In this document: positions 5,707 through 59,105 of the stretch, in pieces
How positions within the stretch are numbered: position 1 is the first letter of the stretch
How the letters are laid out: the number at the start of each line of letters is the position of its first letter
Assembly (NCBI GenBank): GCA_002898715.1
Contig: BEIA01000001.1
Coordinates: forward strand, 1,994-65,993
DNA: 64,000 nucleotides
Source: a bacterium HR24
Lineage (GTDB): Bacteria; Chloroflexota; Dehalococcoidia; SM23-28-2; HRBIN24
Direction of reading: 5' to 3'
Made by a program: the position numbers and the translations under genes
Notes under the pieces: generated by a model
Database searches by the model: none
What the model was told of the DNA's origin: nothing
What the model saw: the letters and a program-made list of their open reading frames with translations, nothing else

Positions 5707-5783
5707 GCGCCCCAGTAGCTCAGTAGGAAGAGCGGCGGCCTCCTAAGCCGCAGGCCGAGGGTTCGAGTCCCTCCTGGGGCGCC
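5707..5783 (+). tRNA. tRNA-Arg (anticodon CCT)
   Basis: Acceptor stem GCGCCCC/GGGGCGC; D-arm AGCTCAGTAGGAAGAGC; anticodon loop CTCCTAA with stem CGGC/GCCG; T-arm GGTTCGAGTCC. Confidence 0.85.
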
Positions 5784-5856
5784 ACTGCGTTGGCCATCGG
5801 CGGGCGCAGGCGCTATAATGAGGGGTGCGAGCGCCAGCAAAGCGGGGGATGGAGCC

Positions 5857-6216
5857 ATGATCAACATGACCGAACGGGCAGCCAGCAAGGCCAAGGAGAT
5901 ACTGGAGCAGAAGGGCATCGGCCCCCAGGGCGGTCTGCGCGTGTTCGTTGTCGGCGGCGGCTGCTCCGGCTACCAGTACGGCATGGCCCTAGCCCGTGAG
6001 GTCGAAGAGGACGACTTCGTCATTGAGAAGGACGGCATCCGCCTGGTGGTGGACCCCGAGAGCGCCGCTCTGCTGGAAGGGGCGGAGATCGACTACGTGG
6101 ACGACCTCATGAAGGCCGGGTTCACCATCTACAACCCCAACGCCGTCCGTACCTGCGCCTGCGGGCACTCCTTCGCCACCGCCGAGGGCGGCGGGGCGCC
6201 CCGGCCCTGCCACTGA
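5857..6216 (+). CDS. Iron-sulfur cluster insertion protein (IscA/ErpA/HesB family)
   Basis: Core RVFVVGGGCSGYQYGM ... CACGHSF with the three conserved Cys; start at MINMTE inside the 5818 ORF. Confidence 0.8.
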   Translation: MINMTERAASKAKEILEQKGIGPQGGLRVFVVGGGCSGYQYGMALAREVEEDDFVIEKDGIRLVVDPESAALLEGAEIDYVDDLMKAGFTIYNPNAVRTCACGHSFATAEGGGAPRPCH

Positions 6217-6367
6217 CGGCATCGGGCACCACTGACGCGCTTGCGGCTCTGGAGCCTGCATCCTCGCTATCTGGACCCCCGGGGCCTGACCGCGCTATGG
6301 CGTTGCCCCTTTACAAGGGCGGGCCGGCCCGCTAGCCTACGAACTGGCCCACCGCCGGAGGTGACCC

Positions 6368-6511
6368 ATGGCCTACTGGATCGTCGTCGGCTCGGAGGAG
6401 AACTTCCGCATCGCTCAAGAGCGAGGTTTCGACATCTTCGGCTTCAACGGCGACGTCACCTCGGCACCGTTGTGGTCCGGTAGGTGGCTCCGCCCAGGCG
6501 TCGCCTGCTGA
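6368..6511 (+). pseudogene. Truncated EVE/PUA-like domain gene fragment (48 codons)
   Basis: MAYWIVVGSEENFRIAQERGFDIFGF resembles the start of EVE-domain proteins, then stops after 48 codons; it lies between the tRNA and the IS fragments, so it is probably a host gene truncated by insertion. Confidence 0.3.
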
Positions 6512-6999
6512 AGGACGCGATCTACCGCGTCGGCCTGGGAAGGAGCGTACCTAGAGACGGCATTCTTGTCCCTAATCACCCCATACTGCCGCTGGCCGCC
6601 GATAAGTGCCATCGCCGGTAGCCGTGCCCGCGACCGCCTGCAGGGCCTTACTTTACACTTGGTCATCAAACTGGTCATCAAAACCTGACCACCCCCTGCC
6701 AGATTTGGGCCGGCCACCCCCAACAGGTCCTGCCCAGGCCTACCGCCATATGACGTGGCGGGGGAGCCGTATCTACTGAAACAGTTGCGAAACAGATGGG
6801 CCGGCGCTGGAACAGTTGGAAACGGTCCGGCAACAAAACTCCGGAGATAAAGTCTGCATATAATGGAAACAGTGTGAAACAGATGGCCCGGCCTCAACAT
6901 GCCCGCTGGCCCTAACAGTCCCGTCGTAGGGAAGGACATGATGAGACGGAGCACGCAAGACCACCGGTTGAGGCCCAGCCCTAAGGCGCATTATGCGCA

Positions 7000-7720
7000 T
7001 TAGACCAGCCGGAGGGTCATGATGGTGTGGGCGAGGATGGCGGCAGCGGTGCGGGTCAGCAGGCCCCGGAAGCTCTTGGCCCTATGGCGAGCAAGGCCCA
7101 GTCGCTCCATGAGCTGCGCCTGCCCCTCTCGGCAGCTGGTCGGCCACGGCCCGCTCATCGACAGCGGCCGGCACAATGGCCTAGGCCCGCACGAGCCTGC
7201 TGGCCAGCTCGCTGCGCAGGGCCAGCCGGAAGCGGCACGTCCACTCGCTGTGGGCGGCATCCCAGCCGAAGCCTGCCACCAGGCCACCAGGCCCCTGCCA
7301 CTGGTCTGCGCCCCGCACCCGGCTGGGGTGCTTGACGGGCAGGGCGGTGGTGTCCACCTGCTGCCAGGGGTCCTCGGGCAGGTTGGCCATCAGGCAGGCC
7401 GGCAGCTCCTCGAAGGCGACGTGCAGCCAGCGCAGGCGACGGGCGAGCTCGCTCTGGCTGGGCAGGTGGGGGAAGCGGTGGCGCCACTCCCGCCTGACCT
7501 CTTCCAGGAAGGCCTTCTCGCTGTGGCAGCCCAGGAGGTGGCGCACCAGGGCGATGGCCAGCAACGTCGGCGTCGCTGCAGGCGGGCTTGGGGCCTGGGC
7601 GGTTGGGGATGCTGACCCTCTCCTCCTCGATGGCGTCGTCAACCAGCACACAAGTGTGGACGAACAGGTCGGCCAGTGGCCGTCAAGACTGGGGGCCTCC
7701 GCAGCTGGGGTTGTCTGCAT
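7000..7720 (-). pseudogene. IS4/IS5-superfamily DDE transposase remnant (frameshifted and internally deleted)
   Basis: ORF 7181-7720 has a DDE_Tnp_1-like N-terminal region (WQQVDTTALPVKH); ORF 7000-7287 in another frame ends with a typical transposase C-terminus (ERLGLARHRAKSFRGLLTRTAAAILAHTIM); total length is too short for an intact gene. Confidence 0.5.
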
Positions 7721-7936
7721 CCCCTTTAGTGCTGCGGTAGGCCTCCACTTCTCAATTCATCTCTAAGGGCGGGGGCCGAGTCAACGCTTCCTCAGGGCGC
7801 CATGGCCTCCTCCCTCCTGGCCACAGGGCCAAAGGACACGCTCCCGAGCAGCGCCGAGAGTCACTCTCCGTCCCTGCCCGAGGACAATATGTCCCGTATG
7901 CGAGGCAGGCTGGGAGGTCACAGGGCCGGCCATCGT

Positions 7937-8979
7937 CTAGGCCATGTAATGGCTCGAGCCCGCCTGCCCCTGGGGAGCAAGGTGCGGGCCCACCTCCCTG
8001 TAGGACCTGCCCGTCCTGAGCATCCAGAAGACGGCCTTGGCGAGCTTCCTTGCCACCGCCACCCTCGCCTTCTGGGTCCCCTTGCCCACCAGGAGCCGCC
8101 GGTAGAACTCCTGCAGGGGCCCAGGCCGCCCCACGGCGCCCGTGCCCGCCTCCACCAGGGCCCACCTGAGGAAGCGGGAGCCCTGCTTGGTGATGGCGCC
8201 GTGCCTTACCGCCCCTCCCGAGGCGTAGGTGGAGGGCACCAGCCCGGCGTAGCTGGCGAGGTGCCTGGCGCTGGGGAAGCGGGAGACGTCCCCTATCTCG
8301 GCCAGCACCAGGAGGGCAAGATAGTAGCCTAGGCCGGGCACGGTGGTGAGCAAGAGGGCCCGCTCGTCCCTCCTGGCCACCTCCCGCACCCTCCCTGCCA
8401 GCAGCTCAAGCTCCTGCCTGAGGGCCGAGAGCAGCCGCAACAGGCCCCCAAGCTCCTCGCCGTAGGGCTCGGGCAGCCTGAGCCCCGCCAGCCACCCGAG
8501 CCCCTTCCTGGAGAAGGGGGTGGGCATGGGCGGCCGCACCGGCAGCCGGTCCAGGAGGGCGTGGATGCGGTCCTTCACCGCCCTCTGCAGGCCCACCAAG
8601 AAGGCCCGGTAGCGCAAAAGCTCCCTCAGGGCCCTCGTCTCCTTGTCGGCCACGTAGGCCCTCGCCACCAGGTCTGCCCGCATCTCCGGGCCAGGATGTG
8701 GGCGTCCGGCCGGTCGCTTCCCCGGCCTGGCCGAGGCTATGGCTCTTGTCTTGTAGGGATGGACGAGGGTCACCTCCAGCCCTGGTCAGAGAGGAGGCCC
8801 ATGGCCCACTCCCAGGCCCTGGTGGCCTCCAGGGCCACCTTGAGCCCTCCGCTCAGGCCCGCAAGGGCCGCAAGCAACCCCTCGGGGCTGCTCTCGGCCC
8901 TCCCCTGCCTCACGGTCCTACCCCTCTCGTCCACCACCGCCAGGTAGGAGTGCCTTCCCCTCAAGGTCCAGGCCCGCAT
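7937..8979 (-). mobile_element. IS110-family transposase gene, split by a frameshift near 8770
   Basis: ORF 8770-8979 is the IS110 N-terminal DEDD domain (YLAVVDERG...LKVALEATRAWEW); ORF 7937-8773 is the C-terminal IS116/IS110/IS902 domain (VPGLGYYLALLVLAEIGDVSRFPSARHLASYAGLVP); the two frames overlap by 4 nt. Confidence 0.75.
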
Positions 8980-9075
8980 AGAACATCTCTCTGGGGCCTC
9001 CTTTCCCTCAGGGTTTCTCTCTTTACCCCCACTGTAGGGCAGGAGGCCCCCGCCCTTATAACATCACGTAACGCG

Positions 9076-10296
9076 CTAACGCAGCGCTTCGCCCGTCTCC
9101 CGCCCCTCGCCACCCACGAGGCGGTCCAGGAGGCGCATGGCCTCCTCGCTGCCGCCCGCCAGCACGTGCGAGTAGACGTCCAGAGTGGTGGACGGCACCC
9201 GATGCCCCAGCAGCTCGGCAACCACCCGCACGCTCACGCCGTGCCCCAGCAGTAGGGATGCCACCAGGTGCCGCAGGTCGTGTACCCGCAGCCCGGCCAT
9301 GCCCAGCCTGGCCGCGGCCTGCCCCAGGTAGTACTGGACCCGGCGGGCGCTCTCCGGCGCCCCGCCCTCCCTCACGAACACATAATCACCGGGGCTGGGC
9401 TCCCGCCCCATCATCTGTCGCCACGCCGCCGCCTGCCGCTCCAGGGCCCGGCAGGCCATGTCCCCGATAGGGATGGTCCTGTCCGAGCCTGCCTTGGCGC
9501 CCCGCTCGTGCACGCCGCCGCTCGTCCGGCTCAGGGTGCGCCTCACCTGGACCAGCCGCCGCTCCAGGTCCACATCCCCCCAGCGCAGCCCCAGCGCCTC
9601 TCCCAACCGCATGCCCGTCGCCGCTATGAGCGCTATCGCCGGCCCCACCGGCGACCCCTCCACCTCCCTGAGCAGCCGCGCCAGGCCCTCCGGCGACGGC
9701 AGCTCGGGCCTGCGCGGCCGGTACACTCCGGGCCTCACCCGAGCGCACGGGTTGTCTGGGAGCAGCCCCATGCTCACTGCATCGTTCAGGGCCTGCCTCA
9801 GCACGGCGTGGATGTTCCTCACCGAACCCTGGCCCAGGCCCCTCTCCCGCGCCCGGAGCAGCACCGCCTGCACGTCCATCGGCGTCAGCTCGCGCAGACG
9901 CAGGTGCCCGATGACCGGCACCAGGTGGTGCTGCACGACGATCCGCTGCCCCTCCACCGTAGCCGGCGCAAGGCCTCCTTCCCGCATCGCCAGCCACCTC
10001 TCCAGATACGCCGCCACCGTCACCCTCCCCGTCCCCCTCGCCTGCCCCAGCCTCCCCTCGTCCCGCCTGCGCAGCAGCTCCGCCCTAACCCGCTGAGCGT
10101 CCTTGTATGTGCCGCGGACGGTCACCCGTATGTACGTCCGCTTCTTCTGGCGCGAGTCGTAGCCCATGTAGACCCGCACGGACCACGAGTTGCTTCCCCG
10201 CTTCTCGATCCCCTCGGGCACGGCCCACCCCCGACGTGCAGCGTGGGTTGTCCACCAGCGCCATCCCGTCACCGGCCCCGCATCTCCTCCTGCCAC
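9076..10296 (-). CDS. int: Tyrosine-type site-specific integrase (phage integrase family)
   Basis: 406 aa; conserved box II/catalytic region HDLRHLVASLLLGHGVSVRVVAELLGH...TLDVYSHV; AP2-like N-terminus; 3' end faces the tRNA-Arg; true start may be an internal Met. Confidence 0.9.
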   Translation of the reverse strand: MAGGDAGPVTGWRWWTTHAARRGWAVPEGIEKRGSNSWSVRVYMGYDSRQKKRTYIRVTVRGTYKDAQRVRAELLRRRDEGRLGQARGTGRVTVAAYLERWLAMREGGLAPATVEGQRIVVQHHLVPVIGHLRLRELTPMDVQAVLLRARERGLGQGSVRNIHAVLRQALNDAVSMGLLPDNPCARVRPGVYRPRRPELPSPEGLARLLREVEGSPVGPAIALIAATGMRLGEALGLRWGDVDLERRLVQVRRTLSRTSGGVHERGAKAGSDRTIPIGDMACRALERQAAAWRQMMGREPSPGDYVFVREGGAPESARRVQYYLGQAAARLGMAGLRVHDLRHLVASLLLGHGVSVRVVAELLGHRVPSTTLDVYSHVLAGGSEEAMRLLDRLVGGEGRETGEALR

Positions 10297-10393
10297 CCGG
10301 CAGCGGCCACCAGGTGGGCAAGCAGGCGCACGGTCAGCCGCACGAGCGCCTCCAGGTCATCGCCGGACCATCCCCCTGCCTCGGCCATCATCT

Positions 10394-46606: not shown

Positions 46607-47391
46607 CCTATAACCATGATAGGACGGGTGGATAGGGGCATCCCCGCCGTGTGCCTGCCCTCCCTTCGGGGAGCATCTCATCTCGTCGACCGTGCGCCGT
46701 GGCTGCCGGTGCACCGCCGGGGTGGTGGGGGCAGCCTCAGGGGTGGCGGATACACAGTCGGGTATGCCGGCGCTGCCGTCGGGAGCCTCGCTTCTGGGAG
46801 GGGCCTACCTAAGCGAGGGGCTGCAGCACAAATTGACCCCAAGCCGACCCTGGAGGGGTGGACGAGGGATAGGTGAGAATGTGAGATCATGGTTGGAGCG
46901 GTGATATCCTCGGGCGATGGATGCCTTGGAGTGCCTTAAGGTGACAGTATCCGCCCCTGAAGGTGTTGACAACCCTAGAGGGAGGCGCTAGCGTTAGCGG
47001 TTGCGAAGAGTGGTGTGATAGCCCCCAAGAGGGGGCACCTCGCCTCATGGGCGAGGCTCCGCCACCCCCGGCGGCGGCGTGAAGCCTATCCCCCTACAAG
47101 GGGCTCTGGGCTGAAGTGGCCGGGGAAGCGGACTGGGCCCTGTCGTGATGGGCCTTGGTCCGCACAGGAGGTAGCCTCCAGGAAGCGGGAGGAGGCACCT
47201 CCAGAGTGCCGTCGGCGCTCCGGTTGGGGACCGACGGCTGCGGGCAGTAGGAAAAAGCCCCCTCAGCAGGGGGGCCAACCCCAGGATTGAACGGGTTGGC
47301 GTCCCTGCCGAGGGGGTTATTGTCGTTTGACAGCCCCCTCGTCGGGTAGGGTGGCAGCATCCTGCCCCATCAGGGGGCTGTCGACCCCCAG

Positions 47392-47435
47392 GCCCCAGGA
47401 GGATGGCCCCACCTCCTGGGGCTTTTGTATTTGGG
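47392..47435 (+). terminator. Intrinsic terminator-like hairpin
   Basis: Perfect 10-bp stem CCCCAGGAGG / CCTCCTGGGG with 9-nt loop, followed by CTTTTGTATTTGGGG; a near-identical copy lies at 48832. Confidence 0.5.
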
Positions 47436-47495
47436 GCCCTCCGTCGGAGCTGGCCCGGCCGGCGGTGCAAAACCAAAAGGGCTGGAGGTGAACGT

Positions 47496-48242
47496 ATGCG
47501 ACGGTGGGTGTTGTTCTTCCTCCTGGGGGGCATCCCGGGGCTCCTCCTGGCACTCCTGCTGGGGGCTGCTCCCATGCCTCCCATTTTGCGGCGCCTCCTC
47601 CTGGTGGGGGGCGCCGGCCTGCTGGGGGCCCTCTTCCTGGGGGCCATAGCAGGCAACTTGGGGCTCCGGGCGACGGGGCCCGAGGACCCCACTCCCGCAT
47701 TCGCGGCTGCGGGCGCGGTGGCCGTGGCGGGCGCAGCCGTCACCCTGGCAGTCGTGGCCGCCATGGCCGTCCGGGCTGCCCGCCGGCCCGGACGGCCCGC
47801 TCAGGCCGCCCCGACCACCCCGACCGCCGCGGCCGCCACAGGGAGCGAGGGCACCCAGGGCAGCCCCGCTCCCGCCGTGGCCGTGCACGGCGCCGCCCCG
47901 GAGGAGGCGGCCCGGCTGGAGGCCCTGCTGCGGCCGGTCTCGTCCCTCCTGGGCCGGCCCCTGGTGGTGGTCATCACGCCAGGGAGGCCCCGCGGGTGGC
48001 GGCTGGAGGGGGGCGTCCTCCTCCAGGTCCCCCGCCCCCAGGAGCGGCTCCTGCTAGCCGCCCTGGAGGATGCCCTCCTGGGCAGCGGCAGCCCAGGCGC
48101 CCCTCGACGGGAGCGGCCGTCGCGGCGTGCCCCTGAGGCCGACGTGGCCACAGCATCCCGCCGGCCGCGGCCCGAGGACATCGCCGCCGCTGTGGGAGGC
48201 GCCACACCGGAGGGGAATGGTCCAATGAATGGAGGTGTATAA
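47496..48242 (+). CDS. Membrane protein, paralog A (Ala/Gly-rich TM helices + Pro/Arg-rich C-terminus)
   Basis: MRRWVLFFLLGGIPGLLLALLLGA... ; about 85% identical at the protein level to the product of 59106-59822; start chosen at the ATG preceded by GGAGGTGAACGT. Confidence 0.55.
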   Translation: MRRWVLFFLLGGIPGLLLALLLGAAPMPPILRRLLLVGGAGLLGALFLGAIAGNLGLRATGPEDPTPAFAAAGAVAVAGAAVTLAVVAAMAVRAARRPGRPAQAAPTTPTAAAATGSEGTQGSPAPAVAVHGAAPEEAARLEALLRPVSSLLGRPLVVVITPGRPRGWRLEGGVLLQVPRPQERLLLAALEDALLGSGSPGAPRRERPSRRAPEADVATASRRPRPEDIAAAVGGATPEGNGPMNGGV

Positions 48243-48469
48243 TGATGCTGGCGATGGTCAGTCGAGAGCTGAAGGAAGCGTTTCGAGCTGCAACGCGCCT
48301 GCCTCCGGAGGCACAGAGGGAGCTTGCCGCCTTGATCATGGAAGAGATTGCCGACGAAGAGCGATGGGCTGCCCTGTTTGCCGATCCTCGCAGTGAGCCA
48401 CTCATTGCGCGCCTTGCGGCTGAGGCGGTGGCAGAGGATGATGCAGGCCTCACCGAGCCCTGCGATTGA
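48242..48469 (+). CDS. Putative antitoxin (small acidic protein)
   Basis: 75 aa; ATGA overlap with the downstream RelE/ParE-like gene; acidic C-terminus. Confidence 0.45.
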   Translation: MMLAMVSRELKEAFRAATRLPPEAQRELAALIMEEIADEERWAALFADPRSEPLIARLAAEAVAEDDAGLTEPCD

Positions 48470-48738
48470 GGTCCAGGACAACTCGCTCGTTTAGACAGCA
48501 GTTGGAGGCCCTGCCACCGCACATCCGACGTCAGGCGCGCAAGGCGTATGAACTCTTCCGTGCCAATCCTTCGCACCCCAGCCTCCACTTCAAGCACGTT
48601 ATCGCTAATGTCTACTCAGTCCGCATCACACGAGGATACCGGGCGCTCGGCGTGAAGCGGGGGGATAGCATAGTCTGGTTCTGGATTGGCAGCCACGACG
48701 AGTATGAGCGCATGTTGAGGGCAGAGCCTGGGATCTAG
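48466..48738 (+). CDS. RelE/ParE-superfamily type II toxin
   Basis: 90 aa; core VYSVRITRGYRALGVKRGDSIVWFWIGSHDEYERML matches the RelE/ParE pattern (YR(I/V)..R.GDYRiiY.....i.il.IGHR.e.Y). Confidence 0.55.
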   Translation: MRSRTTRSFRQQLEALPPHIRRQARKAYELFRANPSHPSLHFKHVIANVYSVRITRGYRALGVKRGDSIVWFWIGSHDEYERMLRAEPGI

Positions 48739-48831
48739 CCTAACGACCGGTACTGAGGAGTCTCACCCCCCCAGCGCCCTTCGTGACGGGAGGGCGCCGG
48801 AGAGGGGGTGAGAGATTCATATGTCCCCAAG

Positions 48832-48875
48832 CCCCAGGAGGATGGCCCCACCTCCCGGGGCTTTTGTATTTGGGG
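48832..48875 (+). terminator. Intrinsic terminator-like hairpin (second copy)
   Basis: CCCCAGGAGG-ATGGCCCCA-CCTCCCGGGG followed by CTTTTGTATTTGGGG; ~95 nt after the toxin stop. Confidence 0.45.
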
Positions 48876-50322
48876 CCCCTGTCTGGCGGCGGGGCCGCAG
48901 GCGGCCAGGCGGGGAGTTTGTCGACGGGACTGCGGCAGGTGCCGGCAGGACGCCGTCCCCCAGGAGAGGGTGGGCCTGGGCGAGAAGGCCAGGGCCTATA
49001 GCGCCCCCGCCACCTGCTCCATCCCCATCTCCTGCGGGCGCCCGGGCGGAGTGGGGATGGTGCTGGTCGGGACCGGGCGTCGGGGTGGCCCCGCCCCGTC
49101 CTCTCGGAGAGCGGGAGGGCCGAGAGGAGAAGGACGCGCCTGCACCTCCATGGGAGGGGGCGCGTCCAGGGGGACCCTTCCCCGATGCTCCCCAGGGGAA
49201 GGGTGCTCAGTCCGGGGGAGCACCCGCCGGAGCTGGCCCGGCCGGTGGGGAAAGTTATGGGCCAAAAGGGGGGAAGAAGGGGTGAAGGAGGTGCTGTGTA
49301 GTCAGCGCTCCCCGGGCTGCCTGCCCACCCGGGAGGGGCGCTAGTAACTGAATCCCACCCACCCCTGTGGGTGAGGTGGGGGACGCCCCAGGGTTAGCCC
49401 TCCTGGGGCGATAAAGGCGGAGGGCCCCCAGGAGCCCCAAGGCGGGGGGCGCTCCCCCGCGCGGCGGGTATGGCGTCCGCGGCGGGGCCCCTGGGTTTTC
49501 CCCCCTCGTGTCGGGGCTACCGGCGCACGGAGGGTTGGCCGTCCGGCAGGCGGCCTGGCCCGGGCCGGCTGCGGCGAAGGAGTGTCCACCCCAGGGCGGA
49601 GAGGTCACCCCCTCTCCAGCGCTCTTTCTCAAGGGGAGGGCGCCGGAGAGGGGGTGAGAACTTTTTGAGAACTTTTAAGGCCTGCCTCAGGGATACGGCC
49701 CCGGAAGAGGAAGGGCCGCAGCCGGGGCACGTCCCTGTGGCCCATGTCCGGCCGCGGCCCTACCTCACCAGGAGGTTCGCATGGACAGGCGGACCCATTC
49801 GTGGTCCGTCCCGTGCTCCTGCGACCTTGGCGACGCTTGCCCCGTCGCCAAGGCCATTATAGCACAGAGCACGGCGACGGGCCGCGGGCAGGGCCGCTAA
49901 GCCCCTGCCCGCTCCAACCGAATCCCCCCACCCCGTGGGGCGGTGTTGGCCTGGTAGCCGCACCGGGGGCGATGCTCCAGCCCTGCCGGGGGACGTGGGG
50001 ACTCTCTCCCTACCATCGTGGCCGGATGGTAGGGGTCCGGGAAGGCCCTCCTCCCCGCACCCGCCAGGGAGGGGCCAACTGAATAGGGCTGGAAAACTGA
50101 ATAGCCCCGGCGCTCTCCCCGAGGCACCGGGGCAGGCGGGATAGGGGCAGGGGGTGGGAAGCCGCGGCAGCCGGCACCCACCCCTGTGTGTTGCTGCCCT
50201 CCCCTGTGGAGCGCCCGCCGCCACGGGGGAGTAGAGAGGGCGGGCTTCCCGCCCCTGGCCCCGGGGGCAAAGCCCTCCCCGAATGGGGCACAAATCGAAG
50301 GGGAGGGCAGGAGGAGCATCCC

Positions 50323-51423
50323 ATGGCAACCAGCAAGAAGAGCCATATCATCGACCCCCTTGACGAGGGGGTCGACCCCAGGCTGGCGGTTCTCGCCGCT
50401 ATCCGGGAGCAACTCCCGGAGGGCGGCGATGACGCCGCCGCCCCCGCCAAGACCGAGGCGCCCAAGGCGGGCGCCAAGGCTCAGGCCCAGGCCCCGGCCG
50501 TGGCTACCGTGGCCGACACCGACCTCCAGGCGGCCTTGCGCCGCCTGGAGGAGCGGGCCAAGACGGCCCGCCAGGAAGCCGAGGCCCGACTGGCGGAGGC
50601 CAACGGCCTCCGCCAGCGGCTGGGCGAGCTAGCCCGGGAACGGGGCCGGCTCGCCCACGTCGCCCGCCGCGCCCAGGCGCTTGCAGCCTGGGCCGGCGAG
50701 GAGGCCCGGGCCCTGGCGGAGCAGGCCGAGGCCCGCATGCGGGCCATCGAGGAGGAAATGGACGCCATCCGCATTCGCCTCCAGGAGATGGAGGCGGACC
50801 AGGGCATTCGCCTCCTCCGCGCCGAGGAGGCGGCCCGGGCCGAGGCCGAAAAGGCCAAGGCCCAGGCCGAGCAGGCCCGCCAGCTGGCGCGCGAGGGCAA
50901 GCTGGCAGAGGCCCTGGCCAGCCTCCCCGCCCGGCCCGAGGAGGGCTCCCCCGTGGCGGAGGCCCGGCAGGAGCTCCTGCGCACCGCCCACCGTGTGGTG
51001 GGCAACGCCATCTTCCGCGCCCGGGAGGCCCTCGCGGCCGGCGAGGCCGAGCGGGCGCTGAAGGAGATCCAGGGGGTAGCCCGCCTCCTCCCCCACGTTC
51101 GAGGGGAGGACCGGCGGGCGGCCCATGGGGTGTTTTGCCAGGCGGTTCACCGCCTGGCACCCCCCGGCCAGCCCCTAGTGGTCATCCGGGGGCGGCGGCT
51201 TGCCCGAAGGGGCCGTCTCACATGGACGGCCCCGCCCGGGGCCATTGCTGTCGGCACCCCCCTTCGTGGGGCTGCCAGAGTGCTCTACGACCTGGGCACC
51301 CCCTGGAAGGAAGGGGCCTTCGTGCGCGCGGAGGAGGCTGACATACAGCCCCTCCGCACGCGGCACGGTGCGGAGGGGAACAAGCCCCCCGCACCGTGCC
51401 GCAGCAAGGGGGCGAGGGGATAA
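50323..51423 (+). CDS. Coiled-coil hypothetical protein
   Basis: Start MATSKKSH preceded by AGGAGG; long Ala/Glu/Arg-rich heptad region (EEARALAEQAEARMRAIEEEMDAIRIRLQEMEADQG); conserved leader motif upstream. Confidence 0.45.
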   Translation: MATSKKSHIIDPLDEGVDPRLAVLAAIREQLPEGGDDAAAPAKTEAPKAGAKAQAQAPAVATVADTDLQAALRRLEERAKTARQEAEARLAEANGLRQRLGELARERGRLAHVARRAQALAAWAGEEARALAEQAEARMRAIEEEMDAIRIRLQEMEADQGIRLLRAEEAARAEAEKAKAQAEQARQLAREGKLAEALASLPARPEEGSPVAEARQELLRTAHRVVGNAIFRAREALAAGEAERALKEIQGVARLLPHVRGEDRRAAHGVFCQAVHRLAPPGQPLVVIRGRRLARRGRLTWTAPPGAIAVGTPLRGAARVLYDLGTPWKEGAFVRAEEADIQPLRTRHGAEGNKPPAPCRSKGARG

Positions 51424-53765: not shown

Positions 53766-53901
53766 GCCCGGAGGCCGCAGCAGTCCTCCCCCTGACCCCA
53801 ACCCCAACCCCAACCGAGATACCACCATCCTCGCCCCTAGTCCCGGGGGCATAAGCCTGTCCGAACGGGGCACGAATCGAAGGGCAGGCGGAGGTGAACA
53901 T

Positions 53902-55155
53902 ATGCGCGATGTCATCTTCACCGCCACCCCCTGTGGGGTGGCGGTCCTCCCCACCACCGACACTGCCCCCGCCGGCGCCCGGCGCCTTCTGGCGGGGCGC
54001 GCCTACCTTCTCCCCTCCCGGGAAGGCCTCCCGGCGGAGGGTGAGAGAGAGGTCCTCGACCTCGCCTCCCGCCTCGCCCGCCTGCGGGACGAGGTGGCGG
54101 TGAGGTTCGTGGCCAGGGACGAGCTCGCCCTGGCCACCGCCTGCGCTCTTTCGTCGGGAGAGCACCTCTTCGTCCTCTCCCCTCCCGGGGCGGCGAAGAG
54201 CGCGTTCCTCCGCGCCTTCGCCGAGGGCATTGGGGGCCGCTTCTTCCGGGTGGTCCTCAATCCCGATATCCCCCGGGAGGCCATCTTCGGCGCCATCGAC
54301 CCCTCGGCCCTCGCCGAGGGCAAGTGGCGCCGGCGGTGGGACGGGCTGGCCCGGGCCCACCTGGCGCTCCTGGACGAGGTGTTCAAGGCCTCGCCACAGG
54401 TCTTGAACACCCTCCTGGACGCCCTTGAGGAGAGGCGGGCCGGCCAGGGGGAGGACGAGGTCGTCCTCCCCCTCATCTCCGCCATGGGTGCCTCCAACGA
54501 GGCGCCCGAAGAGCCGGAGCTGAGGGCGGTCTATGACCGCTTCCTCGTCCGGCTCTCGGTGGGGTACGTCCAGGACCCCACCGCTTTCAAGGGGCTGCTC
54601 GTGGCCGATGCCGGCAGCAGCCCCATCACCCCTGTCATGACAGCAGAGGAGCTCATGCTCCTTGCTGCCGCCGTGGAGGCCATGAGCCTCCAGCCGCCCG
54701 CCGAGGTGGTGGAGGCCATGGCCACCATCTGGTCGGAGATGCGCGACCGCGCCGTCTCCGACCGCCGGTGGCGGCGCTCCCTCAAGGTCGCCACCGGCCA
54801 TGCCCTCCTGCGGGGTGCCCAGGCGCCGGAGGTCTATGACCTCGCTGCCCTGCGGTGGACCCTCTGGGTCGACCCGCAGGAGGAGAAGGAGGTCCGGGAC
54901 CTGGTCCTGGGCCTCACCGACCCCCTGGCGGGGAAGGTGCTGGACCTGGAGGCCCTCCTCGCCGATGCCGCCCGCCGTATGGCGGGCCTCGGCCAGATGA
55001 AGGCCGAGGAGAAGGCCCGCCTCCTGCGGGAGCTGCGGGAAATTCGCAGCGAGGCGGAGGGGGTCCTGCCCCAGGCGGGGCGCCATGCCCCGCGCGTCTC
55101 GGCCGTCGCCGAGGAGGCCCAGGCGATGGTCGAGAAGATCATCTCCAGCTTCTAG
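53902..55155 (+). CDS. MoxR-like AAA+ ATPase (AAA_5/AAA_3)
   Basis: Walker A HLFVLSPPGAAKSAFLRAF, Walker B ALLDEVFKASPQVLNTLLDALEER, sensor region; conserved leader GGGGCACGAATCGAAGGGCAGGCGGAGGTGAACAT directly upstream. Confidence 0.75.
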   Translation: MRDVIFTATPCGVAVLPTTDTAPAGARRLLAGRAYLLPSREGLPAEGEREVLDLASRLARLRDEVAVRFVARDELALATACALSSGEHLFVLSPPGAAKSAFLRAFAEGIGGRFFRVVLNPDIPREAIFGAIDPSALAEGKWRRRWDGLARAHLALLDEVFKASPQVLNTLLDALEERRAGQGEDEVVLPLISAMGASNEAPEEPELRAVYDRFLVRLSVGYVQDPTAFKGLLVADAGSSPITPVMTAEELMLLAAAVEAMSLQPPAEVVEAMATIWSEMRDRAVSDRRWRRSLKVATGHALLRGAQAPEVYDLAALRWTLWVDPQEEKEVRDLVLGLTDPLAGKVLDLEALLADAARRMAGLGQMKAEEKARLLRELREIRSEAEGVLPQAGRHAPRVSAVAEEAQAMVEKIISSF

Positions 55156-55167
55156 GGGGAGGGGGCC

Positions 55168-55902
55168 ATGCAGAACCTTCTCCGCCACACCTGCCCCTCC
55201 TGCCAGGGGCGATTCTGGCTGGAGCGGCTCCCGCAGGGGACCATCCTGTGTCCCTACTGCGGGGCGACTGTCTCCGGCTCCGGCCGCCTCGGGCGGAGGA
55301 GCAGCGCGGTCCCGGCGTGCACGGTCCGCAACGGGACCGCCGTCCCCGGCATCCGCACCGAGGATGGCCTCATCATCCTCGGTGAGGAGGGCCGGGGCAG
55401 GCGACTCACCCGGGTGCCCCTGCCGTCGGGGGCATCCCTAGACCGGGAGGGGACCGTGCAGGCCCTCCCGGTGTCCCACCCCGCCGCGGTGGCAGTGATC
55501 CTCATCCGGGACCACTCCGGCTACCGCGGCGGGTGGGAGCTCCTCACCCTCCCAAGGGAGGACTGCCCCCTGCGGGGCAAGCTGGAGCTCCTGTGGGAGG
55601 AGACCTGCCCCGTCTGCGAGTGGTGGGGCAGGCATGGGCCCTACCCCGTCCGCCAGCTCCGGGCGCAGGACCTCGGCCACCTCATCGCCGAGGGCTACTG
55701 TGCCCAGGGAGCTGCCGGGCGAATGGGCGGCGGGCCCGAGTACCTCATCGCCGCTCCCCCGGGGGAGTTCTGCATTTACCGCTGGGGGCGGCTCTACGGC
55801 GCACCCCGCTTCGTGGGGGTGCGCATCTACCCCGACGGCCGGGTGGAGACGTGGGACGTCATGGAAGCCCTCTCCTCCACCCGTGCCGCCGAGTCCTGGT
55901 AA
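55168..55902 (+). CDS. Zinc-ribbon protein (candidate vWA-MoxR-associated middle component)
   Basis: N-terminal CPSCQGRF...CPYCG zinc ribbon, further CPVCEW; sits between the MoxR and VWA genes. Confidence 0.45.
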   Translation: MQNLLRHTCPSCQGRFWLERLPQGTILCPYCGATVSGSGRLGRRSSAVPACTVRNGTAVPGIRTEDGLIILGEEGRGRRLTRVPLPSGASLDREGTVQALPVSHPAAVAVILIRDHSGYRGGWELLTLPREDCPLRGKLELLWEETCPVCEWWGRHGPYPVRQLRAQDLGHLIAEGYCAQGAAGRMGGGPEYLIAAPPGEFCIYRWGRLYGAPRFVGVRIYPDGRVETWDVMEALSSTRAAESW

Positions 55903-55918
55903 GGAGGGGGGTGAGGCC

Positions 55919-57493
55919 ATGAACGGCCCCATCCCCTACCTCCCTCCCGCCGCCGAGCGGGTCCTGGAGCAGGCCCGCAGGCTCTTCCTCCTGCGGGACC
56001 TGCGCTCGGTGGCGGCGGGGGCCGACCGCCTCTCCTTCCGCCAATGGGCGGAGGGGGTGCGCGGCTACCCCCAGGCCGCCGAGGCCAACGAGGACCTCGG
56101 CGGCATCCTCGGCGGGGAGCCGGTGAGGGACGCCTTCTTCCTCGTCACCTCGCCGGCGCCGCAGCTGGTGCCGCAGCCCCCACAGGGCACCGAGCTGCTG
56201 CACCGCATCCTGGGGGAGGCCATCACCACCCCGGGCTTCGGTCGCCTGCGGGAGACGGCGGGCGATGACCCGGTGGTGGCTGCGTACGGCGCCTCCCACT
56301 GGGCGCGGGAGCTCGTCTCGCAGCTCCCGGAGTCCATCAAGGAGGCCGCCCGCGAGGCAGCCGCTGCCCAGGGGGAGGTGCAGGAGGCCCGGGAAGCCCT
56401 GCAGCAGCTCGCTGCCCTCAAGGCCTCCCTCGAGGAGCAGGGCCGGGAGGTGCCCGGCGAGCTGGTGGAGCAGCTCGCCCAGGCCGAGGCAGCCGTCCAG
56501 GCAGCCACCGCTAGGGCCCAGGCGGCCTCCTCGACCACCCTCGCCCTCCTGGAGGAGAGGGCAGCAGAGGTGCGGGCCGCCGCCTCCCGAGCCGCCGAGG
56601 CGGCCTCCACCCAGGGCCGCCAGTTCGAGGCCTCGGTGAGGGGCTTCGACCTGGCGGCAGGGGGCGAGGGGGCCGTCTCGCCCGAGGCGGCGAGGGCCTG
56701 GATGGAGGTCCTCGCCCGCCATCCCCGCCTGGAGGCCCTGGCTCGCGAGCTGGGCTGGGCCCGCCGCCTGGTGGGCTCCCTCTGGCGCCAGTCGCCACAC
56801 GCCCGCACGGAGCTGGTGGGCTACCGCTCCGGCTACCTGCGGGCCGAGGAGCTGGCGCCCTGGGAACTGGCCCTCATGGTGGGGCCGGCGCCTGCCCGGC
56901 TCGACTTCCTGCGCCGGGCTGCCGAGGGTGACATCCGCCACCGGCAGCTGCAGGGCAGGGAGAAGATGGGACGGGGGCCGCTGGTGGTGGTCAGGGACGA
57001 GTCGGGCTCCATGCAAGGGGGTCCGCATGCCCTGGCCGTCGCCATCGAGTGGGCCCTCCTGGAGGTCTGCCGCCGGGAGGGCAGGCCCCTCGTCTCCATC
57101 TGTTTCTCCGGGCCGGGGCAGGTCCGGGCCTGGAGGGCGCCCACAGGCGGGCGGCCCGACCACGAAGGGCTGCTCCGCCACCTCTCCCACTTCTACGGGG
57201 GAGGGACGGAGCCCTACCAGGCCCTCTCCCTCGCCCTCCGGGAGGTGGAGGGGAGCGCCGAGATGAGGCGGGCCGACATCCTCCTCATCTCGGACGCCAT
57301 CTTCCCACCTCCGCCGGAGGAGGTGCGACGGCTGCTGGAGGCCGCCCGCCGGCGCCGCCCCCTGCACCTGGCCGCCGTCCTGGTGGGAACGGTGCCGGGA
57401 CCCCTGGAGGGGCTGGCACACCCCATCGTCAGGGTGTCAGACCTCCTCCAGGAGAGGGAGCGGCTGCGGGAGGCCCTCTCCGCCGTCCTGTAA
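55919..57493 (+). CDS. VWA-domain protein (MoxR partner)
   Basis: C-terminal VWA/MIDAS-like block LVVVRDESGSMQGG ... ILLISDAIF; long coiled-coil/Ala-rich N-terminal half. Confidence 0.65.
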   Translation: MNGPIPYLPPAAERVLEQARRLFLLRDLRSVAAGADRLSFRQWAEGVRGYPQAAEANEDLGGILGGEPVRDAFFLVTSPAPQLVPQPPQGTELLHRILGEAITTPGFGRLRETAGDDPVVAAYGASHWARELVSQLPESIKEAAREAAAAQGEVQEAREALQQLAALKASLEEQGREVPGELVEQLAQAEAAVQAATARAQAASSTTLALLEERAAEVRAAASRAAEAASTQGRQFEASVRGFDLAAGGEGAVSPEAARAWMEVLARHPRLEALARELGWARRLVGSLWRQSPHARTELVGYRSGYLRAEELAPWELALMVGPAPARLDFLRRAAEGDIRHRQLQGREKMGRGPLVVVRDESGSMQGGPHALAVAIEWALLEVCRREGRPLVSICFSGPGQVRAWRAPTGGRPDHEGLLRHLSHFYGGGTEPYQALSLALREVEGSAEMRRADILLISDAIFPPPPEEVRRLLEAARRRRPLHLAAVLVGTVPGPLEGLAHPIVRVSDLLQERERLREALSAVL

Positions 57494-57614
57494 CCGCCAC
57501 CCCTGATCCCTGTGCGTCCATGACGCCGCGAGGCGCACAGAAGGGGACAGGGGTCCCCACCGGCGTCGGCCCGGCCGGCGGGGTGAAGCTATGGGCCAGG
57601 AGGTGATATGTGAT

Positions 57615-59072
57615 ATGATACTGAACCTCCTACCCCCGCTTCACCGCCCTGCCTACATGGTGGGCGGGGCGGTGCGAGACATGCTCCTGGGGAGACCCCT
57701 CCACGACATCGATATCGTCGTGGAGGGGGACCCCCATGAGGCCGCCCGCGAGATCGGTGCTGCCCTCGCGGGCGCCCTGGTCCCCCTCAAGGGCCTGGTG
57801 CGGGTGGTGGCCACCCATGTGCAGGTGGACATCACCCGCCTTTCGGGGCCTATCGCCGAGGACCTGGCCCGCCGCGACTTCACCATCAACGCCATGGCCC
57901 TCCCGCTGGGATCCGGGAGGGAGAAGGGCCTGCCCCCGGTCCTGGACCCCACGGGTGGCAGGGACGATCTCCGCCGGGGCGTCGTGCGACTCGTCTCGCC
58001 CGATGCCCTGGCAGCCGACCCGGTGCGGCTCCTGCGGGGGCCCAGGCTCGCCCTCGAGCTGGGCTTCCGCGTAGAAGGGCACACCGCCCGGGCCATCAGG
58101 GCGCATGCCCAGCTCCTCGGCAGGGCAGCCCCTGAGCGGCTGGCGGAGGAGCTGCGCCGGCTGCTCCACCTGCCGGACGGCGGGCGGGGGATGGGCCTCC
58201 TCCACCACCTTGGCCTCCTCGTACAGCTCTTCCCCGAGCTGCAGGAGGCCGAGGGGGTGGCCCAGCCCTACCCCCACCGGCAGGACGTCCTCGCCCACCT
58301 GCTGGACGCTGCCAGGTGGGCCGACGTCATCCTCGGCCGCTCGGCGACGGCCGAGGAGGAGCGCGTCCGCCGGGCCACCGGCCACCTCATGACCCCACAG
58401 GTGCACGAGCGCCTGGGGGAGGAGGTGGCCCACGGCTGGCAGCAGGCGGCCCTCCTGCGGTTGGGGGCACTCCTGCACGATATAGGCAAGCCCCGCAGCC
58501 GTAGGAGAACCCAGGACGGCCGTGTCCACTTCTATGGACACGACCGCCTGGGCGCCGAGATGGCAGCAGCCATGGCGGCGCGCCTCCGGCTCCCCGCCAG
58601 GGCCGGCACCTTTCTCATGGCCCTGGTGAGGGAGCACATGCGGCCGGTGGGGCTCGCCGCCGCCCCCGGCCTGCCCTCCCGCCGTGCCCTCTACCGCCTC
58701 CACCGCGACGCCGGCGGCACCGCCACCGCCCTGGCCCTCCTGTTCGTGGCCGACACCCTGGCCACGAGCGGGCCCGGGGACCGGGAGCGGCTGGGGCGGG
58801 CGCTAGAGGTGGCCCGCCACCTCGTGCTCTACGGCCACGAGCAGGACGCGGTGCCCAGGCTCCTGTCCGGCCACGACGTCATGACCGCCCTGGGCATCGG
58901 GCCTGGGCCCCTCGTGGGCCGGGTGCTGCGGGCCGTGCAGGAGGCGGCAGCCGCGGGGGAGGTATGCAGCAAGGAGGAGGCGCTGGAGCTGGCCAGGCGC
59001 ATAGCCCAAGCTCCCGCGCCCTCCCAAGAGCCCATCCCTGCCCCTGGCCCCGGGGGTGAAGCCTGCCCGTAA
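57615..59072 (+). CDS. CCA-adding tRNA nucleotidyltransferase / poly(A) polymerase-family enzyme with HD domain
   Basis: Pol-beta NTase head GGAVRDMLLGRPLHDIDIVVEG, RRDFTINAMAL, HD motif ALLHDIGKP...HFYGHD; start at MILNLL with AGGAGGTG RBS (ORF extends to 57591). Confidence 0.75.
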   Translation: MILNLLPPLHRPAYMVGGAVRDMLLGRPLHDIDIVVEGDPHEAAREIGAALAGALVPLKGLVRVVATHVQVDITRLSGPIAEDLARRDFTINAMALPLGSGREKGLPPVLDPTGGRDDLRRGVVRLVSPDALAADPVRLLRGPRLALELGFRVEGHTARAIRAHAQLLGRAAPERLAEELRRLLHLPDGGRGMGLLHHLGLLVQLFPELQEAEGVAQPYPHRQDVLAHLLDAARWADVILGRSATAEEERVRRATGHLMTPQVHERLGEEVAHGWQQAALLRLGALLHDIGKPRSRRRTQDGRVHFYGHDRLGAEMAAAMAARLRLPARAGTFLMALVREHMRPVGLAAAPGLPSRRALYRLHRDAGGTATALALLFVADTLATSGPGDRERLGRALEVARHLVLYGHEQDAVPRLLSGHDVMTALGIGPGPLVGRVLRAVQEAAAAGEVCSKEEALELARRIAQAPAPSQEPIPAPGPGGEACP

Positions 59073-59105
59073 GGGGCACAAATCGAAGGGCAGGCGGAGG
59101 TGAAC

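Follow-up and report, generated by a model that had tools for sequence, protein, structure and literature searches.

Strand-oriented hairpins between co-transcribed genes are typical of the repetitive extragenic palindromes (REPs) and bacterial interspersed mosaic elements (BIMEs) of enterobacterial operons, which often lie within ~15 nucleotides (nt) of the upstream stop codon and act on mRNA 3' ends, stability, or translation of the upstream gene. REPs are single palindromes of 20 to 40 nt with a GTAG head, occur in hundreds of copies genome-wide, and are mobilized by RAYT transposases. Among mobile elements, the STAXI RNA motif is reported to be abundant in MPF_G integrative conjugative elements (ICEs) of Bacteroidales (PMC5587801), plasmid leading regions carry repeated Frpo-type elements of ~300 nt 5' of co-oriented early genes (PMC11541004), and the ribbon-helix-helix repressor Reg576 acts through dual TTATCCC heptamers on plasmid p576 (PMC6294495). 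Integron attC sites are recognized as folded single strands (PMC2727003). Here, we analyzed a repeat-rich region of an ICE from the unclassified bacterium HR24, namely, positions 48780 to 50320 of a 64-kb window (the whole 64,000-nt stretch of DNA that was studied, to which all coordinates refer). A reading made from the sequence alone had described this region as coding-poor, repeat-dense, and GC-rich and had proposed that it may encode small RNAs (sRNAs) or one large structured RNA or serve as a recombination hotspot.

The repeats proved to be real and far beyond chance, yet they are not a free-standing oddity. The region appears to be the leftover noncoding skeleton of one accessory-gene slot, a gene-less remnant rather than an active oddity, and it is composed of modules that we designate T (terminator), A, Ld (leader), B, and H (hairpin). 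We assign a probability of roughly 55% to a composite explanation, in which these modules act in cis as RNA parts of cargo transcripts and, by being repeated, also cause cassettes to be lost and shuffled, with a biochemical role that we infer. Their closest functional analogues would be the REP/BIME elements and the STAXI pseudoknot repeats, whereas Frpo elements and attC sites recall parts of the arrangement but appear to differ in defining features, as set out below. The HR24 modules share with REP/BIME elements the repeated, strand-oriented intergenic hairpins near stop codons and the promotion of rearrangements. In contrast, the HR24 unit is ~125 nt long, contains a probable pseudoknot along with three helices that covary and two unpaired motifs that are conserved, and was seen only in the variable region of a single element family. 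Membership in the REP/BIME class was rejected, as the units measure at least 125 nt and lack a GTAG head and no copies lie beyond the variable region within the 64-kb window. Like STAXI, a pseudoknot motif found often in multiple copies by DNA-processing genes of conjugative elements and possibly involving single-stranded DNA (ssDNA) (PMC5587801), they recur within a conjugative element. However, no match to the STAXI Rfam model was obtained at E values up to 10, the sequence, size, and host differ, and the HR24 motif is tied to stop codons and ribosome-binding sites.

Cargo units and the gene lost from the region

Relatives were collected in three ways: (i) six loci (L001 to L006) were retrieved through homologues of the 366-amino-acid (aa) protein encoded next to the region; (ii) a DNA pattern of the leader, run against metagenomes, gave true copies in L013, L014, L016, L020, L022, L025, L031, L035, L036, L040, L041, and L043, together with chance coding matches; and (iii) more distant relatives, with a 366-aa protein that is ~50% identical, are L047 to L052. 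BLAST maps placed T, A, the leader, B, H, a small gene, and the region upstream of the 366-aa gene in nine loci. A BLAST search of positions 48700 to 50400 against plasmid and phage databases gave no match, the leader pattern found only two chance matches within coding sequences (PPELARPV) in species-representative genomes, and viral contigs scanned with the leader and with the module B tail yielded nothing.

These related metagenomic elements each contain the same modules several times, and all copies lie on the gene strand. The cargo unit appears to follow one plan: it opens with terminator T, which is followed in some cases by the 345-nt module A, and continues with a pseudoknot-like leader next to the ribosome-binding site, an open reading frame (ORF), module B, and the terminator hairpin H. 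The window reads T, Ld, a 248-aa gene, a toxin-antitoxin operon, H, T, A, Ld, nothing, B, an extension (Ext), H, the small gene, a B remnant, the upstream region, and the 366-aa gene. L005 reads T, A, Ld, geneX, H, the small gene, B, H, and the upstream region, and L036 reads A plus Ld, the toxin-antitoxin operon, H, T, Ld, geneX, B, H, the small gene, B, and H, while L001 contains three leader copies and two to three A copies. The region is thus a chain of separable modules that are combined differently elsewhere, which argues against one large structured RNA.

The "nothing" in the window order marks the place of geneX, a gene of ~115 aa without a match to any known family, which lies between the leader and the downstream module(s) in L005, L036, L001, L006, and L020. 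When aligned with L020, the window matches the first L020 leader up to the start of geneX (GTGC) and then the sequence that follows the second L020 leader, from ATGC/TGTGTAG on. The window has therefore lost the ~115-aa cargo gene geneX at a junction that lies at its start codon, between two direct leader repeats, and the stretch looks coding-poor because this gene is missing. This junction, together with the variable order and content of cassettes among related elements, supports the proposed recombination hotspot. A first copy of T plus leader (47386-47470) equals the second one minus module A, since positions 47386-47439 correspond to 48825-48878 and positions 47441-47470 to 49224-49253; copy 2 thus differs from copy 1 in having the 345 nt of module A between its T and its leader. 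The Ext segment of L020 has a 37-nt insertion relative to the window and is consequently unlikely to be coding.

Direct fusions of a leader to module B contain a mini-ORF of 16 to 17 codons that follows the Shine-Dalgarno sequence, runs through P1, the first helix of module B, and ends at or just before the AACUGAAU linker. Equivalents of the window copy are found in L020 (2012-2068), L016 (2563-2625), L022 (9553-9615), and L052 (~5985-6045). The mini-ORF could serve as an attenuator of the leader-peptide type or have arisen by chance from the fusion.

The sequence-only reading had recognized nothing but low-complexity overlapping ORFs in this region. This judgment holds for the long ORFs, which are spurious given their indels that are not multiples of three, poor aa identity, and in-frame stops, and the frame-specific GC3 signal is weak over 48780-50320 compared to that of the flanking genes. 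It does not hold for a conserved 39-aa gene, the small gene of the module orders, so that a conserved protein frame is present for 120 of ~1540 nt only. The encoded Cys-rich protein (MDRRTHSWSVPCSCDLGDACPVAKAIIAQSTATGRGQGR) has an H/C/C/C motif within the pattern THSWSxPCxCxLGxxCPVAxA(I/L), and homologues of 34 to 39 aa, all preceded by a ribosome-binding site, were found in L001 (2 copies), L005, L006, L013, L016, and L022. Almost all differences between the L005 and L013 genes are synonymous third-position changes, and a called 37-aa homologue (P0021) was matched with an E value of 5.6e-6 against 1.84 billion proteins; no Pfam or other known family was matched. The JGI gene calls for L001 and L005 do not include this gene, and in at least five relatives module B starts 5 to 9 nt after its TAG stop.

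The repeats that had drawn attention to the region are parts of these modules. The 26-mer GGGAGGGCGCCGGAGAGGGGGTGAGA, reported earlier at 48787 and 49621, occurs exactly twice, at 48788-48813 and 49634-49659, which was matched in 0 of 100 shuffles, and in both cases it forms the 3' arm of the ~55-nt hairpin H (H1, 48761-48813; H2, 49605-49659). The second terminator copy is equally real, with a hairpin plus TTTTGTATTT at 47392 and 48831 that differ by 1 mismatch in 48 nt, and the motif shared with the leader at 47446 (GGAGCTGGCCCGGCCGG) was recovered at 47446 and 49229. The octamer AACYGAAT is present four times in the 64-kb window, always in the region and on the plus strand (49346, 49916, 50077, and 50095), compared to 0.32 copies expected per window, and no shuffle reached four. 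The claim of perfect palindromes did not survive: they correspond to a single imperfect hairpin (49354-49380) with one bulged A, and the occurrence at 50175 is only a half-site.

Between 46800 and 50500, we counted seven terminator-like sites where 1.3 were expected. Both T copies were called intrinsic (Rho-independent) terminators by the scan (47405-47423 and 48844-48862, each followed by TTTGTATTTG). H2 forms a terminator-like end of the module B unit, its stem being followed by ACTTTTTG, and several H orthologues are followed by GCTTTT. The T-runs after T and H are on the plus strand. H1 is a bulged version of H2 without a T-run; in L001 and L036, too, an H hairpin homologous to it lies after the toxin-antitoxin operon. 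H stands after module B in L001 (2 copies), L005, L013 (2 copies), L016, L020, and L052. Some H hairpins end in TGATAG.

All four AACYGAAT copies (AACTGAAT) belong to B-type units, namely, the linker of module B (49346), a degenerate B (49916), and the tandem of a type-2 B-like unit (50077 and 50095); the fuller consensus in relatives is GGGAC-AA(C/G)(U/C)GAAU. The degenerate remnant consists of a hairpin with the stop codon of the small gene in its loop (49886-49910), AACCGAAT (49916-49923), and a P2-like hairpin (49924-49943), and a full module B occupies its position in L005, L013, L016, L001, and L052. The type-2 unit comprises a P1 with a CCCGCC loop (50046-50074), the tandem (G)ACAACTGAATAG at 50077/50095, a hairpin with a C-rich loop (50104-50133), and the tail AGGCGG..GGGG (50134-50148). 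Weak matches of the module B covariance model described below fall at this position in the window, L003, L013, L047, L048, L049, and L050.

Conserved folds of module B, module A, and the leaders

Module B (~125 nt) contains, in this order, helix P1, the linker GGGACAACUGAAU, helices P2 and P3, and the tail AAAGGCGGAGGGCC (the tail is also written GGCGGAGGGCC and the motif GACAACTGAAT). The evidence for its fold is as follows. (i) In a MAFFT alignment of 12 copies, 91.6% of the cells pair, compared to 46 to 61% in slid controls; 11 pairs show compensatory changes, and 0 of 500 shuffles were as good. (ii) A covariance model built on these 12 copies gave 22 strong matches (55 to 122 bits) from ten sources, all on the gene strand and one of them in the window. 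(iii) With 20 distinct copies, 92.3% of the cells are paired, 17 of 31 pairs are compensatory, and the covariation score is 0.398 versus at most 0.142 in slid controls, figures that are inflated as far as pairing goes by the fitting of this alignment to the model for P1 to P3, a bias from which the MAFFT-based 12-copy test is free. (iv) Covariation concerns 9 of 10 pairs in P1 and 6 of 8 in P3 (98% of P3 cells paired), and the minimum-free-energy fold reproduces P1 to P3. The earlier proposal of structured RNA is thus supported by compensatory base changes in module B as well as in module A and the leader hairpin described below. A search of Rfam, which that reading had recommended, gave no family: with Rfam 15, only tRNA reached the gathering threshold in the window, STAXI, twister, other ribozymes, and riboswitches were not found, and relaxing E to 1 (46800-50500) or 10 (49280-49700) added only chance miRNA-like hairpin matches far below threshold. 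Module B is thus an uncatalogued candidate for a new RNA family of structured intergenic motifs in mobile elements.

The tail may take part in tertiary contacts. A helix that is absent from the model, S2, would join the P3 loop (GGCCC) to the tail (GGGCC); pairing is retained in 99 of 100 cells of its 5-bp core, each of the 11 one-sided changes leads to a G.U pair, and one G-C to C-G double change was seen in L047 (GCCCC with GGGGC). Resting on a nearly invariant sequence and one compensatory event, and hence of low statistical power, these data make a P3 loop/tail pseudoknot suggestive but not proven. In L047, the other half of the tail has changed from GGCGG to GGGGU, in agreement with a P1 loop changed from CCGCC to GCCCC, which hints at a second tertiary contact, between the P1 loop and the tail. 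The type-2 units appear to follow this scheme too, having C-rich loops and the AGGCGG...GGGG tail.

At least 12 of 19 copies of module B begin 0 to 12 nt beyond the stop codon that ends the upstream ORF. That stop is mostly TAG (the small gene, geneX, and genes of 164, 119, and 248 aa), a codon that accounts for 16 of the 42 stops (38%) in the window.

Module A is 79 to 89% identical to copies in L005, L013/L036, L001 (2 copies), and L016/L022, which differ from each other by indels of 1 to 2 nt that are not multiples of three. The 178-aa ORF of the region shows only 64 to 71% aa identity, with stops, although the DNA is 86 to 89% identical, whereas the toxin-antitoxin genes reach 97% at the protein level. 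The fold is a multibranched string of short hairpins and not one long hairpin. The local hairpins are 95.5% paired, and 14 pairs show compensatory changes, compared to 1 to 4 in slid controls (five sequences only). Long-range pairs proposed by RNAalifold were discarded as unreliable, as they drew on the leader's own stem. The first hairpin (48877-48920) is terminator-like and has a U-run in relatives, and the module holds internally duplicated units of the type GGGAC-hairpin-GGAGAG..GGGCC.

The leader is a putative H-type pseudoknot. Its first stem, S1, occurs in 19 distinct arm combinations that are all complementary, among them CCGCCGG/CCGGCGG, CCCCACCGGC/GCCGGTGGGG in L014, CCACCGG/CTGGTGG in L022, and CUCCAGG/CCUGGGG in L047. 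S1 encloses the conserved loop AGCTGGCCCGG at 49231-49241 (core, AGCUGGCCCGG) and is followed by the A-rich L3 (49250-49258) and by GGGCC near the Shine-Dalgarno sequence. The second stem would pair the 3' strand UGGGCCA with the loop UGGCCCG (CUGGCCCG with CGGGCCAG); 4 to 8 bp are possible in 21 of 21 curated copies, and in copies with the downstream strand GGGCUGG, both changes give wobble pairs. The loop lengths (~2 nt for L1 and 7 to 13 nt for the A-rich L3) would allow a plausible geometry, and the predicted topology is the same as that of the module B pseudoknot. In relatives, the Shine-Dalgarno sequence and start codon lie directly 3' of the leader; in most gene-linked copies, the former begins 0 to 2 nt past GGGCC, and the leader ends ~12 to 16 nt before the start codon. 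The window copy at 49223-49269 has no gene after it. The 366-aa gene has a type-2 leader of its own, which is conserved in all seven aligned loci. A second copy of this leader was noted at 59033-59084 (plus strand; GCCCCTGGCCCCGGGGG..GGGGCACAAATC), 3' of a gene for a CCA-adding/poly(A)-polymerase-like enzyme, so that the element reuses a second standard leader too.

Taken together, the G.U bias, the plus-strand T-runs, the proximity of module B to stop codons, and the placement of the leader at the ribosome-binding site lead us to consider the modules RNA parts of mRNAs. As such, they would act within the cargo transcripts: (i) T and H would end or attenuate transcription; (ii) the leader pseudoknot, with its second stem reaching the first Shine-Dalgarno bases, would tune translation initiation; (iii) module B would be a 3'-untranslated fold within ribosome reach of the stop codon that may link translation of the preceding ORF to the fate of the transcript (its stability, its processing, or read-through of H) or bind a common element-encoded factor; and (iv) the directly repeated modules would recombine homologously, with deletion, duplication, and reshuffling of cargo as the result.

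Besides the alignment bias and the low power for S2 mentioned above, several observations weigh against this proposal. The role at the RNA level is deduced from strand bias, wobble pairs, and position. In module B, 45 G.U pairs stand against 11 A.C mismatches, and 91.6% of cells pair on the plus strand versus 82.5% on the minus strand; the G.U excess could partly reflect a G-rich plus strand. Thermodynamic z-scores are unremarkable, with -1.3 for module B (plus strand) and -2.5 (plus) versus -3.9 (minus) for module A, and distinguish neither one strand from the other nor the region from shuffled sequence; for a sequence of 72% GC, uninformative z-scores may be expected. A promoter scan found no sigma-70-type site and no -35/-10 pairs in the region, which leaves the transcription of genes located after T or H unexplained. 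Finally, the type-2 unit would fit a protein-binding DNA site as well as an RNA, and for this piece a DNA- or protein-binding role is a serious alternative: its 61-nt core is 83 to 94% identical among relatives, compared to 64 to 76% for neighboring coding sequence, shows no covariation, and is the most constrained piece of the region.

Alternative explanations of the repeated modules

The type-2 core leads to the alternative that survives best, although we consider it unlikely, namely, that the AACTGAAT-type motifs, and perhaps GGCCC/GGGCC too, are double-stranded DNA operators through which an element-encoded regulator would jointly control co-oriented establishment and cargo promoters. The motif (G)ACAACTGAAT(AG) is found 5' of the 366-aa gene in all relatives, singly or in tandem (2 to 3 copies, 11 to 19 bp apart), and the Reg576 operators offer a precedent for a short motif, single or paired, 5' of several co-oriented genes of a conjugative element (PMC6294495). 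However, no sigma-70-type promoter was detected beside the motifs, and the varying tandem spacing (11, 16, 17, 18, and 19 bp) is poorly suited to cooperative binding on the same face. In module B, moreover, the motif always lies between two covarying helices, which speaks for a folded single strand, and no candidate regulator or repressor was identified, the 366-aa protein showing no DNA-binding fold. Operators could still explain the type-2 unit alone, beside the cis-acting RNA elements proposed here.

We give somewhat less credit to the modules as folded ssDNA that works in transfer or rolling-circle replication, as single-strand origins, primase priming signals, or Frpo-like promoters. Strand-specific structures with conserved unpaired motifs, several copies in the same orientation whatever the type of flanking gene, and a primase gene 1.7 kb downstream would suit this role, and module A in particular recalls the ~300-nt repeated, structured noncoding blocks 5' of small co-oriented genes in plasmid leading regions (PMC11541004). 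In contrast to Frpo elements, which are long imperfect hairpins that restore -35/-10 boxes in ssDNA on the transferred strand of the leading region, the hairpins contain no -35/-10 hexamers, and module A is a string of short hairpins. The relaxase gene is ~18 kb away. Approximately 13% of the pairs are G.U(T) wobbles, which suit RNA better than DNA hairpins and favor the sense-strand RNA, and the T-runs after T and H, the contact of the leader with the Shine-Dalgarno sequence, and the fixed distance of module B from stop codons are features of RNA and translation.

A similarly doubtful possibility concerns module B only, which may be a compact functional RNA with tertiary structure, either a new self-cleaving ribozyme or a ligand or protein sensor; alternatively, the same fold as ssDNA would be a primase signal. 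As a ribozyme or sensor, its tail GGCGG-A-GGGCC may clamp the P1 (CCGCC) and P3 (GGCCC) loops into a double pseudoknot. The tail AUAAAGGCGGAGGG resembles part of the twister ribozyme, but no twister model matched, and we treat the resemblance as a lead only. If this idea is true, modules a few nucleotides past stop codons would cut or switch polycistronic cargo transcripts into separately controlled units.

It is improbable that the modules are selfish miniature mobile repeats, derived from REP/BIME, miniature inverted-repeat transposable elements (MITEs), or IS200/IS605 and without function for the element. Their many copies in one orientation would fit, as would module A, which resembles an insertion between T and the leader, and the TAG at the 5' edge of most B copies and the TGATAG ending some H hairpins could be a target-site signature. 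Against this, the 38% background of TAG stops weakens that signature, no terminal inverted repeats or consistent target-site duplications were seen, and the chromosomal part and the conjugation genes of the 64-kb window contain no copies. The only transposase noticed is of the IS110 type and 40 kb away, and no Y1 transposase was seen in a window that was not exhaustively scanned. Helices and unpaired motifs are kept across elements with ~50% identical proteins, which points to selection.

Free-standing sRNAs with their own promoters, or a protein from a long ORF, are more improbable still. A terminator-like hairpin does follow each module, and ORFs of 112 to 189 aa are open on both strands. 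However, the position of module B behind stop codons and that of the leader at the ribosome-binding site leave no room for promoters, in accordance with the empty promoter scan, and the sRNA genes suggested by the sequence-only reading are thus unsupported. The protein-coding reading of the long ORFs was rejected, as neither frame nor aa identity is conserved in orthologues and the indels are not multiples of three. We also rejected an iteron-type origin, for which we looked for at least three tandem direct repeats of 17 to 22 bp beside a rep gene and an AT-rich region or DnaA boxes: the repeat core measures 8 to 12 nt and is present in 2 tandem copies (3 in L013), the region has 72 to 74% GC without an AT-rich stretch, and the 366-aa neighbor shows no Rep-like fold or family. 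Next to negligible is an integron-like array with hairpins as attC-type sites and cassettes moved by site-specific recombination, because, although promoter-less-looking small cargo genes, toxin-antitoxin genes included, lie between imperfect palindromes whose structure is better conserved than their sequence and cassettes vary in presence and order, the array failed on both core sites (no RYYYAAC...GTTRRRY at H, P1 to P3, or the leader) and an integron integrase (IntI; the sole tyrosine recombinase, ~39 kb away by the tRNA-Arg gene, scores 49.3 bits on TIGR02249 with its cutoff of 265), and the one resolved junction lies inside homologous leader repeats at the start codon, as for homologous recombination.

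The element around the region and the meaning of its sockets

The 64-kb window carries an ICE integrated at a tRNA-Arg gene, as integrase, relaxase, coupling protein, and TraG/TrbL-type genes are present beside tRNA-Arg and chromosomal genes. The chromosomal part at the window start comprises hrcA, dnaK, and ubiA, followed by tRNA-Arg at 5709, and positions 5709-10356 are probably the left end and attachment site of the integrated element. A minus-strand block encodes a Replic_Relax relaxase, a coupling protein, TraG-type and TrbL-type proteins, and a ParM-like actin. From ~45.5 kb on, all genes are on the plus strand, in the order 248-aa membrane protein, antitoxin and ParE-like toxin, region 48780-50320, 366-aa gene, 130-aa gene, and DnaG-like primase, with genes for MoxR/VWA proteins and the CCA-adding/poly(A)-polymerase-like enzyme after the primase. 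The region belongs to the variable part of the ICE, which is bounded on one side by the ParM-type segregation gene and on the other by the 366-aa gene/primase module. The features are compiled in Table 1.

Table 1. Coordinates and strands of features in the window and, where a locus is named, in its relatives
Feature	Coordinates	Strand	Remarks
tRNA-Arg(CCT)	5709		probable attachment site
IS110-family transposase	7937-8785	-	3' of tRNA-Arg in window order
Tyrosine integrase	9076-10356	-	adjoins tRNA-Arg
T+Ld copy 1 (outside region)	47386-47495	+	T 47392-47432, leader hairpin 47441-47488; upstream of 248-aa gene, ATG 47496
Hairpin H1	48761-48813	+	first 26-mer is 3' arm; 23 nt after ParE-like toxin stop
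Terminator T copy 2	48831-48871	+	GC-rich stem then CTTTTGTATTT
Module A	48877-49223	+	~345 nt noncoding, at least 7 conserved hairpins
Leader Ld, putative H-type pseudoknot	49223-49269	+	S1 49223-49230 with 49242-49249
geneX deletion junction	49288-49344	+	from window/L020 alignment; includes 17-codon mini-ORF
Predicted mini-ORF, 17 codons	GTG 49291 to TAG 49344	+	traverses P1 of module B
Module B core	49302-49432	+	covariance-model match 116.9 bits
Module B P1	49304-49342	+	C-rich loop
Module B linker with AACTGAAT	49346-49353	+	between P1 and P2
Module B P2	49353-49381	+	earlier described as palindrome; conserved bulged A
Module B P3	49384-49410	+	loop with GCCC
Module B tail AAAGGCGGAGGGCC	49413-49426	+	GGGC(C) can pair with P3 loop
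Extension segment (Ext)	49441-49600	+	between B and H2; GC-rich, hairpin-rich; homologue only in L020, 76-81% identity
Hairpin H2	49605-49667	+	21-bp stem; second 26-mer is 3' arm; then CTTTTT
Ribosome-binding site and 39-aa gene	49768-49900	+	AGGAGG; ATG 49781 to TAA 49900
Degenerate module B remnant	49886-49943	+	after small gene
Type-2 B-like unit	50036-50160	+	head of upstream region of 366-aa gene
Type-2 leader	50250-50325	+	GCCCCTGGCCCCGGGGGC-AAAGCC-CCCCGAATGGGG-CACAAATC, ribosome-binding site, ATG 50323 of 366-aa gene
Second-slot toxin-antitoxin pairs in relatives	L001 11160-11755; L003 1672-2267; L005 3496-4126; L047 7088-7626; L048 2036-2944		

The 366-aa protein (gene at 50323-51423, plus strand) is identical to HRbin24_00053 of bacterium HR24, and its gene is next to the primase gene in all relatives. 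Its AlphaFold model is confident (pLDDT 85) and shows a long helical bundle and a small beta domain. No significant PDB fold match, no Pfam or NCBIfam family, and no DNA-binding or Rep-like fold was found, and the protein therefore gives no clue to a binder of the upstream repeats; some sources label it "TPR."

A number of further observations concern the neighboring cargo. The toxin-antitoxin operon begins at the stop codon of the 248-aa gene with zero spacer (48238-48245; TAATGATG), and in L036 and L001 it has its own module A and leader upstream; it has evidently been relocated in the window. Another ~500 nt of noncoding sequence lie 5' of the 248-aa gene (46880-47385), are ~80% conserved in L036, L025, and L040, and contain terminator-like hairpins on both strands (47256-47276, minus; 47301-47317, plus). 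A second variable slot was noticed between the 366-aa gene and the primase gene, where the window has the 130-aa gene and the relatives have differing toxin-antitoxin pairs, such as DUF433 plus a PIN-like DUF5615 protein and a nucleotidyltransferase plus HepT. Positions 53767-59072 (plus strand) encode VWA proteins together with their MoxR-type AAA ATPase partners, as well as a protein with CCA-adding/poly(A)-polymerase plus HD domains, an unusual cargo or maintenance set for a conjugative element.

How uncultivated bacteria such as HR24 express and exchange the accessory cargo of their conjugative elements is poorly known. The modules described here suggest that one element family uses a standard socket, composed of a structured leader, an ORF, and a structured 3' module plus terminator, for unrelated cargo and that the repeated sockets themselves may account for the gain, loss, and reshuffling of cargo, toxin-antitoxin genes included. 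The 39-aa Cys-rich gene is of the kind that gene callers can miss, and metagenomes can be screened for this element family and its cargo slots with the module B covariance model.

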